This document shows, one piece after another, positions 1-15,671 of a stretch of 64,000 nucleotides of DNA. The notes beneath the pieces are model-generated. The model did not search any database and was not told where the DNA came from. It saw nothing but the letters and a program-made list of their open reading frames with translations. The stretch lies in IMG/VR virus record IMGVR_UViG_3300017917_003852, positions 1 through 64,000 of that record; one strand, given 5' to 3'. The position numbers were made by a program, and so were the translations under genes. Source of the DNA: a virus. Each line of letters starts with the position of its first letter. The stretch's first letter is position 1.

Positions 1-123
1 ATGTGTTTGAATGTGCTTTATCATCCGGATTTTACCACTGCGTTATCGCCACAGCTTCATCCTCGGCTCCGCCCGTTTGGCAAGTTATAGTGTTGCCGCA
101 GCCTCGTTCCGCTACACACTTTA

Positions 124-291
124 TTACTTGTGTCGTTTCGTTAAACGACGCAATTCTTTAAGTTCTTCTGATTGCTTTTGCAATCTTTCCATCTTACTTT
201 TAACTAATTGTTCAAGCAACCTATCGTCAAAAACAAAATTGCGTTCTTCTAACTTTTTGTGAAACGACAGTATTTCTTGTTCGTTCGTCAT
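124..291 (-). CDS. small hypothetical coiled-coil protein (55 aa), not in ORF track
   Basis: ATG at 291 with AAGGAAG upstream; reads MTNEQEILSFHKKLEERNFV...LTKRHK-TAA; first ORF after the attenuator terminator. Confidence 0.6.
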   Translation of the reverse strand: MTNEQEILSFHKKLEERNFVFDDRLLEQLVKSKMERLQKQSEELKELRRLTKRHK

Positions 292-304
292 CACTTCCTT
301 TATA

Positions 305-346
305 AAACAAAAACCCCAGGGTGTTTAGTCCTGGGGTTTTATAGAA
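305..346 (-). terminator. intrinsic terminator of a putative attenuator
   Basis: minus strand AAAACCCCAGG-actaaacac-CCTGGGGTTTTTGTTTT. Confidence 0.8.
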
Positions 347-362
347 TTTGGTTATTTAAAAC

Positions 363-485
363 TTAGGTTCTATAATCCCCCAGGCCACGATTACTAATAT
401 CACGTGTAATCATACCCCAGTAGGCCACTAGCCCACATTCGGGTTGTGATATAAACGCTTTATGTAATAGTGCTGAAGTCATCAT
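363..485 (-). CDS. putative attenuator leader peptide (40 aa)
   Basis: MMTSALLHKAFISQPECGLVAYWGMITRDISNRGLGDYRT-TAA; its last codons are complementary to the 5' arm of the terminator. Confidence 0.6.
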   Translation of the reverse strand: MMTSALLHKAFISQPECGLVAYWGMITRDISNRGLGDYRT

Positions 486-545
486 AGTATCTATTGTAGT
501 TTTATTTATCATTCTTGTCAAGCTTTATTTTATTTATGATTGCCA

Positions 546-1421
546 TTATTTTTCTTGCAACTGTTGTATTTTTAGCAACTCTCTTGTTTCTTTGGTTGTA
601 GCTAACCGACTACCAACATCTTCAATAATCCTTTTTGCTTTTACAACTAGCTCTGCATTACTTTTTGCTAGTATCCTTGGACTAACAAATATATTGTCTT
701 CCATGCCAACACGAGCATGTCCGCCATTGATAGTACTTAATGCTACATATGGCATTTGCCAGCGGCCTACACCAAATGCATACCAATTTGCATTGCTGGG
801 TAACAGACTTCGAGCATATTGTAACGTCTCAGGGCAACTAGGCCAACCCCATTTTACACCAGTTGCAATTTGTACTAACGGAGGGTTGTCGATTTCGCCA
901 TTTTCAATTAGTTCTTTAGCAATCATCATGTCGCCGCTGTCAAAGATCTCTAACTCTGGTTTAACTCCTGCTTTCCTAATAAGTTCTGCCATAGCACGTA
1001 TAACAGGAATACTATTAACAGTAATTTGATCTCGCCCTCGATTCATTGTATTAAAGTCCAAACTACATATTTCTGGTTGAAGTTTTAACACATGGGCTAC
1101 ACGTTCTTCTGGAGATAGAAATCCAGGATGGCCATGGCGTACAGACTCAGCAGGCCCAGCAGCACCAGGTCCAGTAGTTAGATTAATTAGAATTTCCTTA
1201 TTCTGTGCGCGAATACGTTCTACTACTTCCTGATAGTATTCAAACTTTATACTAGGGCCAGTAGTTTCTGGGTCTCTAACATGTAAATGTACAATACTAG
1301 CGCCAGCATCGGCAGCTTCTAACGCTGAATCAGCAATCTCTTTGGGAGTGACTGGCAAGTTAGGATTACTCTTTTTTGTAGTATGAGCACCAGTAACTGC
1401 ACAAGTTAAGATAGTTTTCAT
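546..1421 (-). CDS. beta-keto acid cleavage enzyme (BKACE/DUF849, Kce family)
   Basis: ITCAVTGA-like N-terminus, PxTPxEIA, HLHVR metal motif, RVGMEDN. Confidence 0.9.
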   Translation of the reverse strand: MKTILTCAVTGAHTTKKSNPNLPVTPKEIADSALEAADAGASIVHLHVRDPETTGPSIKFEYYQEVVERIRAQNKEILINLTTGPGAAGPAESVRHGHPGFLSPEERVAHVLKLQPEICSLDFNTMNRGRDQITVNSIPVIRAMAELIRKAGVKPELEIFDSGDMMIAKELIENGEIDNPPLVQIATGVKWGWPSCPETLQYARSLLPSNANWYAFGVGRWQMPYVALSTINGGHARVGMEDNIFVSPRILAKSNAELVVKAKRIIEDVGSRLATTKETRELLKIQQLQEK

Positions 1422-2164
1422 AATGTACGACCACCATCAATAACAAAAGTATTACCTGTAGTAAAACGTAACCGAGTAGCAATAGCTTCTACTGCTGCGC
1501 CAATATCCTCGGGCGTACCTACTCGCTGTAGCGGAGTTAAAGATGCCATACGATCGTAAAAGTCCTGTCCGTACGACAAAAATCCAGTGTTAATCGAACT
1601 CGGACAAATAGACACAACACGAATATTAGGAGCAAAGGCCAGTGCTAAGTTTTTAGTAAGTGCTTCAACACCAGCTTTTGACGATACATAAGCCACGTTG
1701 CTACCATGCCCTGGGCGTTGCGTACTAGCTGAACTAATATTAACTATTAGTGCATTTGGGCTTTTGTCTAGCAATGGTTTAAAAGTTCTAATTGTAGAAA
1801 ATACTGATCTTAGATTAGATGTTAAAATTTCTTCAAAGAATTCGTCGGTTACCGATTCGATGTCTCGATGAGGAATTGGTCTTGAATGTCCTGCTGATGT
1901 TACTAAGATATCACATTGTGAAATTAATTCTTTAACAGAAACTAGGTCGTCGGTATTGCATACATCAGCATAAATGGCAAGATGATTGTCACCAGGTAAG
2001 GTGTTTATAAAATCCCTAAAATCATCTAAATTACTTCTTACTAAGCCCACAATACGTGCGCCGCTAGCTGCCAAACTTTGGCATACTGCCCGGCCAATTC
2101 CTCCATTGGCTCCGGTAATTACAGCAGTTTGTCCTGATAGATCTTTTAATGGTGTAAATGTCAT
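1418..2164 (-). CDS. short-chain dehydrogenase/reductase
   Basis: TGANGGIG, NISS, YVSSK catalytic motif, C-terminal IDGG. Confidence 0.9.
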   Translation of the reverse strand: MTFTPLKDLSGQTAVITGANGGIGRAVCQSLAASGARIVGLVRSNLDDFRDFINTLPGDNHLAIYADVCNTDDLVSVKELISQCDILVTSAGHSRPIPHRDIESVTDEFFEEILTSNLRSVFSTIRTFKPLLDKSPNALIVNISSASTQRPGHGSNVAYVSSKAGVEALTKNLALAFAPNIRVVSICPSSINTGFLSYGQDFYDRMASLTPLQRVGTPEDIGAAVEAIATRLRFTTGNTFVIDGGRTL

Positions 2165-2226
2165 AATAAATACTCGCATCTTCCTGTGTTATAAACTATA
2201 CTACAAACTTCAACTACAGTCAATCT

Positions 2227-3381
2227 ATGCCCTCAACTCCTTTAGTCTATACTGGTGACCAATTTGGTTTCTATACCGTTGGTCCTAATTTTAAAACATA
2301 CAGCAAACTATTAGCCATTGAGGAAATGCAAAGAACTGGGCAGCATTTAGAATGGCATTTCAACGAACATACTTATAAACAATATACCTGGAAAACCGAA
2401 CCAGAAGAAACGTTAAGTGAATTGTATAAAAAAAGAGCTCAAGAAATTAGAGATTCTTATGATTATATTGTTTTATGGTATAGTGGCGGCGCTGATAGTA
2501 AATGTGTGCTTGATTCTTTCTTAGATAATGATATTAAAATAGATGAAATTGCAAATTTTATATCGTACGATGCTGACAAAAACAAAAAAAGTGTATTAAA
2601 CGAAGAAATATTTTGCACTGCGTTACCACACCTAGATCGAATAAAAGAAAAATGGCCCGATGTTAAGCACCGTGTTGTTGATATAAGTCAAATCATTGCT
2701 GATATTTATTTAAGACCTGACTTCAAGTTTGAACATATCTATTACATCAAGGGCATTATGTCTGCTAATAGTTTAGCACGGTCTTACATTAGAGAATATG
2801 TCAATGACTATAAATCTATAATGGACAGTGGAAAAAGAATGTGTTTCTTGTGGGGCGCAGAAAAACCTAGATTAATGAAGAAACAAGGAAAATGGAACAC
2901 ATATTTCATTGATGTCTTTAGTGAAACTAATTTAAGATTACAAAGCTTAGGACATTTAGGGTATTTTGACGAATGGTTTTTTTGGGGTCCTAATACTGCT
3001 CCGATTGTTGCAAAACAAAGTCATATATTAATGAACATTATGAAGCAAGCAGAAACTATGCCCGATCTACTTTCGCCAGTCTCAGGTGCTCATCTTCCAA
3101 TCGCAGACAATGGAATGTATTTACGCAATGACATTTATCATAGTGCAATCTATCCTAAATGGAATCCAAACCTAATCGTTGCACCAAAACCACACAATCT
3201 ACTACTGTCTGAAAGAGATCATTGGTTTTGGTCGCAAAATGTAGCATCCAATGAAGGAGTGAAAAACGCCCAAAACGGAATTAAAGAAATGGTTCGACGA
3301 ATTGGAAGTTATTGGTTAAATGATATCAATGATTTGTCAAGGGGAATTAAAGGATGCTATACACATTATCCATTAGAGTAA
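2227..3381 (+). CDS. PP-loop (adenine nucleotide alpha-hydrolase-like) protein
   Basis: LWYSGGADS PP-loop motif; exact activity unknown. Confidence 0.6.
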   Translation: MPSTPLVYTGDQFGFYTVGPNFKTYSKLLAIEEMQRTGQHLEWHFNEHTYKQYTWKTEPEETLSELYKKRAQEIRDSYDYIVLWYSGGADSKCVLDSFLDNDIKIDEIANFISYDADKNKKSVLNEEIFCTALPHLDRIKEKWPDVKHRVVDISQIIADIYLRPDFKFEHIYYIKGIMSANSLARSYIREYVNDYKSIMDSGKRMCFLWGAEKPRLMKKQGKWNTYFIDVFSETNLRLQSLGHLGYFDEWFFWGPNTAPIVAKQSHILMNIMKQAETMPDLLSPVSGAHLPIADNGMYLRNDIYHSAIYPKWNPNLIVAPKPHNLLLSERDHWFWSQNVASNEGVKNAQNGIKEMVRRIGSYWLNDINDLSRGIKGCYTHYPLE

Positions 3382-4463
3382 TGTTTTAACAACCATGTGC
3401 GTGATATCTTGTTTGCTGGCGACAACGGAATAGTATTAACTTGCTCGACAAAATCAGGCCTGCAATGTTGTCCTAGAGATAGTAAGAAATCTGTAATAGT
3501 ATTTTTATCACAATCACCAGTATAGATTACCCGAACACGATTTTCGCCAAACACAACACATTGACCAATGTCGGGTATATTAGAAGTTAGTTGATTTTCT
3601 ATACTCACTGGATTCACTTTAATTCCTCGTACATTAATTTGGTCTCGAGATCTTCCTAATATACGATAGTATCCATCCGCATCAACTTCAGCTAAATCTC
3701 CAGTATCATACCAATCTGCAGAGCAAACAGTATAGCCGCGAATTAATAAATGCCCGTCGTCAATCTTTGCTTCTACTCCGTCGGGTAATCCAACTGTGCC
3801 TACTTTTTGTATGCCATCTAACGGATTAGTAAAGCAATGACTTAGTGCTTCAGTCATTCCAAACGCTTCTACAATAGGAACAGAGAATTTTTCTCGAAGT
3901 CTATGATAAAGCTCATCGGGCATAGGCGAACTAGCAGATCGAATAAATCGCAACGACGGCAAGTTCATGTTTTCTATCAACTTTAATACATCAGGTATGG
4001 CAGTAACAAATGTGGGATCAAAAGTTTCTAGTTCTCTTATTTTTTTAATGTTTAAGAAAGATACCGTACATCCGGCTAATTTTGTTGCCCAATAAAATCC
4101 TTGTCCGTGTGCATGCCACAATGGCATTATACTAACATAGCGATCCTTGTCTGTAATGTTATAACTTTGTACAATTCGTCTGGCTAAGTTATTAACTTGA
4201 TCTTGTGTAAAACTACAGAATTTACTATCTCCGGTGGTGCCGCTAGTGTACCAAAATACTTTTTCGTTATGGTATGCACCACCATCTCTAGTATGGCGAC
4301 CTTCGCGATTTATTAATAAACTATAGTCAGAATGATCTAGTAGGTACTTAATTCTGTCTGCTGGGCTGTCTGGATTGATTATCATCAGACTGTATTCATC
4401 TAGAGTCGGAATTAAATCCCAGGGGTTATCAACACAGATAACTGCACGTTTGCGGTTTGTCAT
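3366..4463 (-). CDS. AMP-binding enzyme / acyl-CoA synthetase-like
   Basis: YTSGTTGDSK, EAFGMTE, YDTGDL, GRSRDQI ANL-superfamily motifs. Confidence 0.9.
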   Translation of the reverse strand: MTNRKRAVICVDNPWDLIPTLDEYSLMIINPDSPADRIKYLLDHSDYSLLINREGRHTRDGGAYHNEKVFWYTSGTTGDSKFCSFTQDQVNNLARRIVQSYNITDKDRYVSIMPLWHAHGQGFYWATKLAGCTVSFLNIKKIRELETFDPTFVTAIPDVLKLIENMNLPSLRFIRSASSPMPDELYHRLREKFSVPIVEAFGMTEALSHCFTNPLDGIQKVGTVGLPDGVEAKIDDGHLLIRGYTVCSADWYDTGDLAEVDADGYYRILGRSRDQINVRGIKVNPVSIENQLTSNIPDIGQCVVFGENRVRVIYTGDCDKNTITDFLLSLGQHCRPDFVEQVNTIPLSPANKISRTWLLKHYSNG

Positions 4464-4524
4464 AGTAAGTTAATTATAAAGAGTTTATGTAAAAACAGCA
4501 ACCGGAGTTGCTGTTTTGATTGAA

Positions 4525-5499
4525 TTAATGTAATGTTCTAATTCGTTTTATCAAACCATCGCTAAAGTGATATTTACATTTAGCATAGGTAATTTGCGAT
4601 TTGTGTTTTAAGATATTACGATCCTCGTCACTGATATCAACAATACTTACTCCGTTTTGTTTTGCTTCAGTTTCAAATTTTTCTGCATCTTCAATACTCC
4701 ATTGGCGCTCTTTGCGAGCTGCCTCAAATGCGGCGCTGCGGAATATCTCTTGTTCTGCCTCAGTCAATGTGGTCCAAAATTTATTGCTAATTAAAATAGT
4801 AGTCATAAACATTGAGTGATTTGTTTTTAAAATATGCTTACCTTCAAATCTTAGATAAGTTGTTTCTACAGCATCGCCGAGGTTGCTGTCAAGGATATCA
4901 TATTTTTTCCAAAGGTATGGAGGAATAGATACAGCTTCGCCACCGATACTTTCAATAGTTGTACCTAGAGTTAATGGTTTATCAACAATAATTTTTAATC
5001 CTTGTAAATCCTCAATCCCGTTAATTGGATTGTTAGAACCAATTACTCGATATCCACCTGAGTAAGTAAATGCTAATCCAGTAACTGGAGTACGGCGTCC
5101 CAACTCGGCACACAGTTCTTTACCAATTTCACCTTCAAGAACACGACTAACATGATCGTGATCGTCAAATATAAATGGTAAGTCAATTGCATCAAAATCG
5201 TTATAACGATCTCCAATGCGACCTACCTGTGTTTGACTCATTTCAATGTCGCCATCATCTAATGCCTTCCAGAAAGAATTAAATCCTTCGCTGAAATTTT
5301 CATTATTATAATCATTCATTAATTCTAAACCAGCAATAGGAGCATATTTTTCGCAATATTCTGGATAGGTAAGAATTTCTAAATCTATCGAATTTAAACC
5401 TTGTTTAATAAGTTCTTCTTTAAAAGCATTGGCAGTACGCACAAATAAATCTTGTGGTTGATGTGCAATAAGCCAGCGTACTTTGCGGGGGTTGTTCAT
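4525..5499 (-). CDS. dctP: TRAP transporter substrate-binding protein (DctP family); no obvious signal peptide
   Basis: DLPFIFDDHDH, YSGGYR, EDLQGLKI motifs; ATG preceded by AGGAG. Confidence 0.75.
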   Translation of the reverse strand: MNNPRKVRWLIAHQPQDLFVRTANAFKEELIKQGLNSIDLEILTYPEYCEKYAPIAGLELMNDYNNENFSEGFNSFWKALDDGDIEMSQTQVGRIGDRYNDFDAIDLPFIFDDHDHVSRVLEGEIGKELCAELGRRTPVTGLAFTYSGGYRVIGSNNPINGIEDLQGLKIIVDKPLTLGTTIESIGGEAVSIPPYLWKKYDILDSNLGDAVETTYLRFEGKHILKTNHSMFMTTILISNKFWTTLTEAEQEIFRSAAFEAARKERQWSIEDAEKFETEAKQNGVSIVDISDEDRNILKHKSQITYAKCKYHFSDGLIKRIRTLH

Positions 5500-5640
5500 G
5501 TGTTCTCCTGGAGATTGATGTATAAATGTATTTATACTTCGGGACAAAAGCAAAATTTCTAGTAATATTTAGCCCAATAAAAAAGCCCGTACATAGTACA
5601 CAACGATTAGGTTTTGAAGTCACTTTTGGTAAATAATTGT

Positions 5641-8780: not shown

Positions 8781-9350
8781 TTACTCTTCGTCGTCTTCTT
8801 CGTAATCGTCGTAGTCGTCGTCTCTGTAAATATACTCTTTGGTATCATAATCCTGATAGTAAGCTTCATTTGGTGCTAAAATTCTAAATGAATTAGCAAA
8901 CCTTAAAGTTATCACCATAAGTTCTTTTTCATCGCGGATATCACAAATAGCCCAACGACTTCCGCAACTACCAATTACATCTTTGATCTTACTATGCTCG
9001 TACTCACCTGCTTTAAGGGCTCGGAATAAATCGCTACCTTGACTGAAAATAATACGGCCAGCACGTCGTTCGGGATGTTTAAGCCACGCATCAGTAATAC
9101 CCAACTTTGAAATTGTGGCATTATTGTCCGGATCAATTGTTAACTTACATTTTTTAAATTTGATACTACCCTTGGTCTTTTCATTACCCGGGGTTTCCTT
9201 GGTGCTCCAAGGCATATCTGAGGTTACGTGATTAACGTAAAAAGTGACACCATGTGCTTTTACAACCCACATAGGAATGGTTGGATCTGTTAAATGACCT
9301 TTGTTAAAGTGAAACACTAGGTCCTTACATGCATATTCAATCTATTTCAT
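8781..9350 (-). CDS. hypothetical protein with an in-frame TAG at codon 3 (amber read-through candidate)
   Basis: AAGGAAAATAAAA-ATG AAA TAG ATT GAA TAT GCA TGT AAG GAC CTA GTG TTT, in frame with the tracked ORF 8781..9317. Confidence 0.65.
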
Positions 9351-9376
9351 TTTTATTTTCCTTAAAATTTTATTTA

Positions 9377-9613
9377 TTAGTTCTCATCGAAGTTAGTAAC
9401 AATAAATTCTTTACTTGGTTTAAATTTAGCAGGAGCCTTTACTTTACTATCAAAAGTAATATGATATCCAGCAAATTTTTCACCTTCATATTTAACTCTA
9501 ATATCTGATACCTGACGACCAGTTTGTCGCTCAATCGCTGCCACAACTATATGATTAACGGTATTTGCACCAATGGTAGCAGTCATTTCAATATCAATAT
9601 CAAACTTATTCAT
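9377..9613 (-). CDS. hypothetical protein
   Basis: AAAGGA RBS directly after the tRNA CCA. Confidence 0.7.
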   Translation of the reverse strand: MNKFDIDIEMTATIGANTVNHIVVAAIERQTGRQVSDIRVKYEGEKFAGYHITFDSKVKAPAKFKPSKEFIVTNFDEN

Positions 9614-14620: not shown

Positions 14621-14671
14621 AACAAATATCCTTAAAAATTTACTAGTATTTATAAAATATAGCACACTTAA

Positions 14672-15035
14672 TAAAAAACAGGGCCCAAAAGCCCTGTTAC
14701 TATTTTGGGTAATAAGGCATAGTTGCCCCAGAGGTTATGCTGCTAGAGCAAAAACCTCGTCATTAGCTGCGTTTGCAGTTATAGTTTTGCTTCTTTTACG
14801 GAGATCGCCTACCGTGTTGTCCATATCCTTACTCATTGCCCTGTCGAAACCATGTCAGCCCCGGCAAAAGCATACTGGCAGTTACACATACTTTCTTTTA
14901 ACTTTCGGTCCTATCCGTACCATTGCTGGCCTCTTGATTTAAACGGTCTATGAAAGTACCAATATACTTTTGGTGGAGCTGGCGGGAGTCGAACCCGCGT
15001 CCAGAACACCTTTCATTCAACTTCATACAACAATA
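14672..15035 (-). ncRNA. ssrA: circularly permuted (two-piece) tmRNA
   Basis: 3' tRNA-like half GGACGCGGGTTCGACTCCCGCCAGCTCCACCA (ends 14971) precedes 5' half GGGGCTGAC..TTCGAC (starts 14862); tag ANAANDEVFALAA-TAA at 14776-14735; promoter 15042-15070; terminator near 14672-14697. Confidence 0.9.
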
Positions 15036-15074
15036 GCTTATATTATATACTTATTTACAACCAGAGTCAATTAA

Positions 15075-15671
15075 TTAGACAGGATCAGTAAAAACAAGCT
15101 CGTTACCGCGCATCATTACGTTCCCTTCGCCTAGATCATTAACTCCGGGCCCGTGGTTAATTAACTCAATAATATTCCATACGGCAACAAGAACTCCGCG
15201 ATGAGCGCGAGCATATTCAAAGAAAGCAGGATAAGAAGTTTTTAATTTGGAAAAACGTAACTGCATGCCACGGAAGGTTTGTGGCGGCTGTTCTGTGTCG
15301 ATTGTACATTCGTCGATAAAATAACCAGCTTCGGTAACTACACGCTCAGCAGGACCAGATAATTCAGCTAGTTTTTCTAAGCGTACTGCTACAACACCAG
15401 GAACCACCGGTACAAGTTGGCGGCTTATGATACGTGGGAAACTAGGGTTATTTTGATTTGCAAAGCAGACACTTAACCAAGCGCGATATGAACTGTCATT
15501 CGCATTGAATGTCTTCAAAACATAATCTAATTTTGGATGAGCCCATACTGTAGCGAAAGATCCCGACCCTAGCGGACTAAATCCTTGATCGGTTAATACT
15601 GTTTTATAATCGTTAGCGGCTAGTGTTTGCTTAACGCCAACTAATTCTGTTAGTATTTCTTGTATGAGCAT
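15075..15671 (-). CDS. protein-kinase-like fold protein with M-x-x-x-E-I-L-T-E N-terminus
   Basis: LGSGSFATVW, VLK, NDLGEGNVMMR, DP; TAAATA motif upstream. Confidence 0.65.
   Translation of the reverse strand: MLIQEILTELVGVKQTLAANDYKTVLTDQGFSPLGSGSFATVWAHPKLDYVLKTFNANDSSYRAWLSVCFANQNNPSFPRIISRQLVPVVPGVVAVRLEKLAELSGPAERVVTEAGYFIDECTIDTEQPPQTFRGMQLRFSKLKTSYPAFFEYARAHRGVLVAVWNIIELINHGPGVNDLGEGNVMMRGNELVFTDPV

Follow-up and report, generated by a model that had tools for sequence, protein, structure and literature searches.

At one end of the phage contig IMGVR_UViG_3300017917_003852, on the minus strand, lies a compact cassette in which a dedicated promoter, a 40-codon open reading frame (ORF), two competing RNA hairpins and an intrinsic terminator follow one another ahead of a gene for a 55-amino-acid protein and the beginning of a structured RNA (Table 1). 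The window analyzed here comprises bases 1–64000 of this 78-kb IMG/VR phage contig, and a CheckV completeness of about 20% marks the contig as a fragment of a giant phage. The cassette is treated below as a candidate transcription attenuator that would be controlled by the translation of its own ORF.

The leader promoter scores 11/12 and is the best promoter-like site found within bases 1–3000 by a scan for sigma-70-type sites. Tandem start codons (ATG ATG, 485–480) begin 7 nucleotides (nt) past its -10 box, a distance that leaves no space for a Shine-Dalgarno sequence, so that the leader messenger RNA (mRNA) would be leaderless. An earlier sequence-only reading of this DNA had described a 40-codon minus-strand ORF ahead of a strong terminator, and both were recovered, at 485–363 and 340–304, respectively. 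The encoded peptide, MMTSALLHKAFISQPECGLVAYWGMITRDISNRGLGDYRT, contains all 20 amino acids in 40 residues, the set being complete within the first 32 codons. It holds no run of a single amino acid, just as that reading had remarked, and the tandem or clustered codons of classical operon leaders are not present. The promoter sits downstream of the stop codon of a BKACE gene that ends at 546 (minus strand). Lying as it does after a metabolic operon that contains BKACE and before the next module, the cassette could be a constitutive insulator against transcription from the upstream metabolic genes, in which the alternative hairpin plays no regulatory role. However, insulation alone would call for no ORF and no competing hairpin, and the cassette has a near-consensus promoter of its own downstream of the BKACE stop codon. 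Furthermore, BKACE relatives in other phages have no such element downstream, whereas the element is always accompanied by the 55-amino-acid gene, the structured RNA or a transfer RNA (tRNA) module, and the insulator explanation is therefore given a very small probability.

The core of the cassette is formed by two hairpins that compete for the same bases. The final codons of the ORF constitute the 5' arm of an antiterminator (CCTGGGGGATTATAGAA, 384–368, minus strand), which pairs with TTCTATAAAACCCCAGG (346–330, minus strand) to give 15 base pairs around a 2x2 internal loop, and this pairing is present in the minimum-free-energy fold of the whole leader. The sequence-only reading had located the second arm exactly and the first one base away, at about 369–385. 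The terminator consists of AAAACCCCAGG (340–330) and CCTGGGGTTTT (320–310), and all of 340–330 is common to the antiterminator. The hairpins are thus mutually exclusive, as had been proposed; both folds exist, and the two full-length states of the window leader are nearly isoenergetic (-58.8 kcal/mol for the antiterminator vs -57.2 kcal/mol for the terminator). The whole-leader fold of -58.8 kcal/mol corresponds to a z-score of -4.6, and none of 200 shuffled sequences folded equally well. The terminator hairpin of the window amounts to about -12.5 kcal/mol by itself. Its core occurs once in the 64-kb window and in none of 100 shuffles; a generic terminator scan missed it because its loop is 9 nt long and the limit of the scan was 8. 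In addition, a 7-pair hairpin within the ORF, just upstream of the switch, is nearly invariant in nine sequences of the subfamily and may serve as an RNA polymerase pause hairpin.

Table 1. Features of the leader cassette and of the sequence behind it in the window.
Feature	Coordinates	Strand	Details
Dedicated sigma-70-type promoter	493–521	minus	TTGACA 521–516, 17-nt spacer, TACAAT 498–493
Region 1, transcript 5' end	473–487	minus	CUAUGAU 487–481 and CUUCAG 478–473
Leader ORF	363–485	minus	40 codons and TAA (365–363), leaderless; peptide MMTSALLHKAFISQPECGLVAYWGMITRDISNRGLGDYRT
Conserved hairpin within the ORF	388–412	minus	UGAUUAC / GUAAUCG, just upstream of the switch
Region 2, antiterminator 5' arm	368–384	minus	Final ORF codons, CCUGGGGGAUUAUAGAA
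Region 3, antiterminator 3' arm	330–346	minus	UUCUAUAAAACCCCAGG; 340–330 doubles as the terminator 5' arm
Intrinsic terminator	304–340	minus	Stem 340–330/320–310, loop 329–321, U-run to 304
First gene predicted to be gated	124–300	minus	Shine-Dalgarno AAGGAAG 300–294, ATG 291; 55-amino-acid helical protein, motif K-x-E-R
Start of conserved structured RNA	1–123	minus	AGUGUG..GGAACGAGG..CACU..AAACGGGCGG..; cut by contig end

The influence of a ribosome on this choice was imitated by masking 31 nt of the window leader before folding, a procedure that captures geometry and thermodynamics only. The terminator fold was obtained when the mask covered the stop codon or was set back by one codon; a mask in the middle of the ORF or at its start gave the antiterminator fold. 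In these terms, the antiterminator arm would be covered by a ribosome that has reached the stop codon and would stay accessible when the ribosome halts farther upstream. The claim that transcription should continue when the ribosome stalls is consequently borne out by the masked folds; the companion claim, that it should also continue when the ribosome is absent, is doubtful for the window. Here, before the 3' arm has been made, the 5' arm pairs with 487–473, start codon included, and in the terminator-state fold region 1 can act as an anti-antiterminator that buries the start codon. The probability of pairing between regions 1 and 2 is 0.98 in the window and 0.74–0.98 in three relatives (L012, L021 and L010; L numbers denote loci of the collection described below). 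Such a helix, similar to that of the trp leader, would favor termination kinetically, so that a ribosome-free transcript may terminate. A universal anti-antiterminator in region 1 was not established, as the window and its closest relatives are the only members in which the pairing stands out.

Homologous cassettes were collected by means of the 55-amino-acid gene and of a three-segment pattern (CCUGGGG / CCCCAGG / CCUGGGG), and the hits of the two approaches overlapped. A pattern for the terminator alone matched more than 119 IMG/VR contigs, many of them 100–360 kb in length. After removal of duplicates and of six unrelated matches, 84 sequence-distinct leaders on IMG/VR phage contigs were left, and the retention of the whole cassette in so many distinct copies excludes chance as its origin. 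The window conforms to the definition of this family, namely a 35–51-codon leader with at least 19 amino-acid types whose end lies inside a hairpin that competes with a CCCCAGG/CCUGGGG terminator. It matched model R1 with 43 bits (E = 6e-9), a score to be read in the knowledge that the window itself sat in the R1 seed alignment. The upstream BKACE gene was also tried as a synteny guide and was abandoned, given that eight related phage loci with BKACE were found and none had the element downstream.

The ORF did not enter into the terminator pattern, and its conservation suggests that it is read by ribosomes. An ATG-started ORF is present in 84/84 distinct copies; 95% of them reach at least 39 codons, compared with 4.9% of shuffled sequences, and the stop codon precedes the terminator stem by 25–34 nt. 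All aligned copies (76/76) share the start ATG and one Trp codon, and the leader of L010 differs by an in-frame deletion of 3 nt. A promoter matching 11–12 of 12 positions occurs within 90 nt upstream of the leader ATG in 72/84 copies. Twenty-eight of these are leaderless like the window, with 6–10 nt between the -10 box and the ATG; the others possess a longer 5' untranslated region, and several of these carry an AGGA-type Shine-Dalgarno sequence, as judged by eye. Two distinct solutions for the start of translation are therefore found for the same ORF, which argues for translation as the conserved feature. Accordingly, the family presents a short ORF, conserved as an ORF, between a promoter and an intrinsic terminator.

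These observations bear directly on the possibility that the ORF is incidental and that the cassette is a non-coding RNA switch (a riboswitch, a T-box-like tRNA sensor or a protein-binding leader) or a stand-alone small RNA. The very stable fold of the leader (z = -4.6) is in line with such a function, as are the conservation at synonymous sites and the conserved hairpins inside the ORF. Nevertheless, an ORF length that would be expected in about 5% of cases is maintained throughout the 84 copies, the positions of start and stop are fixed, translation begins in two modes, and the bias in composition described below lies at the level of amino acids. Comparison with Rfam at both gathering and permissive thresholds returned no match for the leader; the best candidate, His_leader, reached 19.1 bits (cut-off 49, E = 1.5), and the T-box model gave no match. 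A purely RNA-based switch is hence regarded as highly improbable.

The competing hairpin is conserved as well. When the nascent RNA was folded up to CCCCAGG, the CCCC of the terminator paired with an upstream G-run to form a three-stem hairpin in 83/88 copies, with a median antiterminator energy of -26.8 kcal/mol vs -12.5 kcal/mol for the terminator hairpin alone (88 copies). The inner stems vary in sequence yet stay paired (GUGUA/UACAC, UUGUAG/CUACAA, GAGUUA/UAACUC, and AUAGAA/UUCUAU in the window), and a compensatory change from A-U to G-C was found in the window-type inner stem of L127 and L013. A plain MAFFT alignment has 84% of its cells paired, vs 23–63% with the partners slid along the sequence. 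In a model-fitted alignment, which leans towards structure, the figure is 83%, vs at most 50% after sliding, and changes on both sides of a pair occur in 69 cells vs 26 +/- 6 in shuffles. The covariation that the sequence-only reading had suggested looking for in homologous leaders is thus present, in that the ORF is kept and the antiterminator is maintained with compensatory changes. The antiterminator arm starts 11–28 nt before the stop codon, most often 22, and the two full-length states are balanced across the family: they differ by a median of -1.9 kcal/mol, and 56/84 copies favor the antiterminator. A conserved antiterminator hairpin that excludes the terminator is therefore a property of the family and not of the window alone.

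The leader peptides stand out by their composition. All 20 amino acids are found in 69 of the 84 distinct peptides (82%) and at least 19 in 94%, whereas windows of the same length taken from long ORFs of the same phages contain all 20 in 2.5% and at least 19 in 13% of cases; for 40-residue windows, all 20 are reached in 0.8%. In 64/84 peptides, the set is already complete before the antiterminator arm begins. Cys occurs in 74/76 aligned peptides and is single in 59, in which that one copy is spread over 20 alignment columns; a single His is likewise spread over 10 columns. Since the rare residues move, relatedness of the sequences cannot explain the all-20 composition. These comparisons indicate that selection on the leader acts on the presence of each amino acid and not on its position, which fits a sensor and not a folded peptide. 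This composition also fits the earlier proposal of a general sensor in place of a single-amino-acid sensor.

Some conserved elements of the peptide could point in another direction, towards a TnaC- or SecM-type sensor that works by nascent-peptide arrest, in which the Trp and a conserved block stall the ribosome in response to one ligand or state. The Trp codon occupies one column in 76/76 copies, and in the main subfamily (e.g., L050, 1721–1858, minus strand) an N/Y-D-R-T-P-E block is encoded by almost only the codons GAU, CGY, ACA, CCA and GAG, with little synonymous variation in D-R-T-P-E. However, the spacing from Trp to Pro varies between 9 and 14 residues, the D-R-T-P-E block is absent altogether from the subfamily of the window, and neither the all-20 composition nor the wandering Cys and His would be accounted for. 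A SecM- or TnaC-like arrest motif with fixed spacing was rejected on the basis of the first two observations, and arrest sensing in general is considered quite improbable.

The genes behind the terminator provide the context in which such a switch would operate. The start of the 55-amino-acid gene follows 13 nt past the U-run of the terminator, and homologues of its product (50–62 amino acids, helical, with the K-x-E-R motif) lie directly behind the terminator in at least 50 of the 84 copies. A large protein search yielded 108 metagenome homologues on contigs of up to 367 kb, all of them hypothetical except for two to which their source gives the label 'heme oxygenase'; the protein matched no Pfam or PHROG family. 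A sigma-70-type scan of the minus strand from 304 to 1 detected no promoter-like site, although phage promoters that are not of the sigma-70 type escape such a scan. As read from the sequence, the direct targets of the switch in the window would be the 55-amino-acid protein gene and the structured RNA. In place of amino-acid biosynthetic genes, a 55-amino-acid protein, a structured RNA and tRNA genes are found downstream of the cassettes.

The structured RNA is a conserved element of approximately 200–300 nt which, in relatives, lies between the 55-amino-acid gene (or the terminator) and the first tRNA. Full copies are found, for instance, in L040 (about 9200–9460, plus strand) and L101 (about 454–650, plus strand). 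It comprises a 5' hairpin (AGUGUG..GGnAACGAGnnCC..CACU), single-stranded motifs (AAACGGGCGG, GGAUG and GAAAAAU), a long helix (GUAUUAAAGC/GCUUUAAUAC) with a variable tip that in some copies bears a T-arm-like GGUUCGAAUCC, and a 3' hairpin (CACACAUUC-GAAA-GAGUGUG) that adjoins the tRNA. A search of this RNA against Rfam gave no match. In 28/80 relatives, a near-consensus TTGACA-17-TATAAT promoter immediately precedes the first tRNA, and in L040 this promoter lies inside the loop of the 3' hairpin.

Arrays of tRNA genes on the same strand begin 86–1654 nt downstream in nearly all copies with enough sequence, as detected with ARAGORN and confirmed with Rfam, and ARAGORN found no array on the opposite strand downstream of the cassette. 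The arrays contain up to 41 tRNAs and cover up to all 20 amino-acid types. The prediction that tRNAs would be found beyond position 1 is thus correct for the relatives, including the closest ones (L010–L013), all of which have arrays, whereas the contig of the window ends before that point. On a 364-kb phage contig, the tRNA array is followed by a GOLLD RNA (L024, 1–458, minus strand; Rfam, 191 bits) that is cut by the end of the locus.

Altogether, these results support the reading of the cassette as a ribosome-mediated transcription attenuator in which the leader peptide works through all 20 amino acids like a checklist, an interpretation to which a probability of roughly 0.7 is assigned. 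According to the proposed mechanism, RNA polymerase would start at the dedicated promoter and a ribosome would initiate on the leaderless AUG. Under fast decoding, the ribosome would be at the last six to eight codons or at the stop codon while the polymerase transcribes 346–304; by covering 384–368, it would allow 340–330 to pair with 320–310, and transcription would terminate. If the ribosome were delayed at any earlier codon, through scarcity of any charged tRNA or a general slowing, 384–368 would be free to pair with 346–330, no terminator would form and the polymerase would read on. Read-through would then extend into the 55-amino-acid gene, the structured RNA and, in relatives, the tRNA array.

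Every available computational test favors the interpretation put forward in the sequence-only reading, and the phage tRNA genes are probably switched on when ribosomes decode slowly. The sequence architecture and its conservation, the bias in composition, the energetics and, for the relatives, the genes that follow the cassette are shown by the present analysis. We infer that the ORF is translated, that read-through is driven by stalling, that an array lies past the end of this contig and that slow decoding acts as the physiological trigger; tRNA-cleaving defenses might be one such trigger. The fuller version of this idea, a pan-amino-acid checklist in which any shortage of charged tRNA leads to read-through and hence to a rescue module of tRNAs, small protein and structured RNA, seems about as probable as its opposite. 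The shortages in question could arise from codon demand, from decay of host tRNAs or from tRNA-cleaving defenses.

Several observations weigh against the attenuator interpretation, or limit the force of the evidence for it. The members of the family were gathered by an exact terminator pattern, so that conservation of the terminator carries no weight and only the conservation upstream of it counts; in addition, the sequences are related, so that the counts overstate the number of independent events. The contig of the window ends 304 nt past the terminator, and its 78 kb contain no array and one unrelated tRNA. A promoter matching 10–12 of 12 positions stands between the terminator and the first tRNA in 28/80 relatives, L013 and L127 included, usually 30–40 nt before the tRNA (e.g., in L040, L053, L093, L136, L013 and L127); in these phages, read-through can only add to the transcription of the array. 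In the main subfamily, the codons GAU CGY ACA CCA GAG show conservation that extends to synonymous sites, and the Trp codon stays in one column throughout the aligned copies, which implies some unexplained constraint at the level of the RNA, of specific codons or of the nascent peptide. Leader codons that exactly match the anticodons of the array are not enriched either, with a median of 0.35 vs 0.41 in phage ORFs and higher values in only 4/33 cases. The possibility that leader codons mirror array anticodons was therefore rejected for the all-20 leader family, and sensing would have to take place at the level of amino-acid types or of overall decoding speed and may lean on host tRNAs. Finally, among cultured phages, blastn searches with the cassette, with a main-family leader and with the leader plus RNA gave no match, and tblastn searches gave no match for two small proteins and only E >= 2 for a leader peptide. 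An exact match to the terminator core was likewise not found in bacterial and archaeal genomes.

Part of this evidence could be accommodated by a functional micro-protein with its own promoter and terminator, in which the hairpin overlapping the 3' end of the ORF only adds stability to the mRNA or makes termination stronger, transcription of the genes downstream being independent. The invariant Trp and the N/Y-D-R-T-P-E block of the main subfamily would then reflect protein function, and the strong promoter before the first tRNA in 28/80 relatives would serve the array. On the other hand, a Cys that wanders over 20 columns and a His that wanders over 10 do not fit a peptide that folds or binds, it is not obvious what a micro-protein would gain from the all-20 composition, and no Pfam or PHROG family matched the leader peptide. 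Moreover, the hairpin does not add to the terminator but contends with it, at about equal stability, for one and the same CCCC, and the 55-amino-acid gene begins 13 nt after the U-run, with no promoter-like site between them. A micro-protein is accordingly considered unlikely, and ribosome-mediated attenuation remains the preferred reading.

The attenuator proposed here shares its general layout with the enterobacterial trpL, hisL, leuL and pheL leaders and the multivalent thr and ilvGMEDA leaders, in which a promoter, a short ORF and an intrinsic terminator precede the regulated genes. In both cases the antiterminator shares bases with the terminator, and the pairing between regions 1 and 2 gives the window four regions in all. 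As in those leaders, the folding model predicts that a completed ORF favors termination and that a stall upstream favors read-through. In contrast to them, the phage leader has no run of a regulatory amino acid, each amino acid being present once or a few times; its mRNA is leaderless, and the 5' arm of the antiterminator coincides with the final codons of the ORF, before the stop. What follows the phage switch is a small protein, a structured RNA and a set of tRNA genes instead of biosynthetic enzymes, and the cassette has no sequence homology to the enterobacterial leaders.

The closest parallel in logic is the whiB7/wblC upstream ORF (uORF) of actinobacteria, where antitermination is believed to follow from stalling in the uORF, and where many different amino acids, tRNAs or synthetases, when depleted, activate the system (PMC10274678). 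It is thus a uORF-and-terminator device that senses translation stress in general; it differs in being bacterial, in gating a transcription factor and in its uORF, which varies among species but is enriched in alanine and not balanced over all 20 amino acids, and it is not homologous (PMC10274678). The closest parallel in target is the trn operon of Anabaena PCC 7120, a supernumerary and horizontally spread tRNA array that is silent until the translation machinery is impaired (PMC8421152). Its control is attributed to the repressor TrcR (PMC10272220). This array thus differs from the phage cassette in being controlled by a transcriptional repressor and not by a leader peptide with a terminator, and in residing on a cyanobacterial megaplasmid. 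T-box leaders resemble the cassette as leader RNAs in which a choice between terminator and antiterminator reports on tRNA charging, but they bind uncharged tRNA directly, without translation, and gate synthetase or amino-acid genes, whereas the phage cassette has a conserved ORF. Phage tRNA genes became known over 50 years ago. Full-text searches of the published literature retrieved no account of attenuators before phage tRNA genes, and nothing was found on the control of their expression. Such genes can rescue phages from tRNA-cleaving defenses (PMC10264068, PMC11464382, PMC11555353).

One further leader, matched by the three-segment pattern and unrelated to the all-20 family, was found on a 157-kb contig (L019, IMGVR_UViG_3300049215_000686, minus strand, about 2118–2260). 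It consists of a leaderless 25-codon ORF encoding MSKFITNTITGTGTDGDTNLPGVIV, followed by the same CCUGGGG/CCCCAGG/CCUGGGG switch, and ends 8 nt before genes for tRNA-Asp, Gly, Gly, Thr, Thr and Thr. Half of the residues of its peptide are Thr, Gly or Asp. In this one case, the arrangement looks like a specialized leader matched to the amino acids of its tRNAs.

Other features of the contig were noted alongside the cassette. The region upstream of it (546–5553) encodes the BKACE protein, a short-chain dehydrogenase, a 384-amino-acid protein without a Pfam match, an AMP-binding ligase and a DctP-type solute-binding protein; relatives of the BKACE gene on eight other phage contigs have different neighbors. 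The sole tRNA of the 78-kb contig (9625–9700, minus strand) bears the anticodon CUA of an amber suppressor and is labeled Pyl by ARAGORN. In addition, a circularly permuted, two-piece transfer-messenger RNA (tmRNA) of the betaproteobacterial type is present at 14644–15084 on the minus strand, with the tag ANAANDEVFALAA (Rfam, 149 and 145 bits; ARAGORN), and a similar tmRNA occurs in L134. The type of this tmRNA hints at a betaproteobacterial host.

If the attenuator reading is correct, an all-20 leader would represent a new sensing logic for attenuation, in which the overall health of translation is monitored and not the supply of one scarce amino acid. Giant phages would also be seen to control their translation toolkit according to need. 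The switch directs attention to two conserved unknowns that would be gated first, the 55-amino-acid protein and the RNA of about 250 nt. With a length of about 220 nt, the cassette is self-contained and might find use in sensing translation stress in general. For the phages themselves, it would make the supply of tRNAs inducible and self-limiting and would have the detection of attacks on translation built in, and the Thr/Gly/Asp-rich leader before tRNA-Asp, Gly and Thr would be a specialized form of the same principle.

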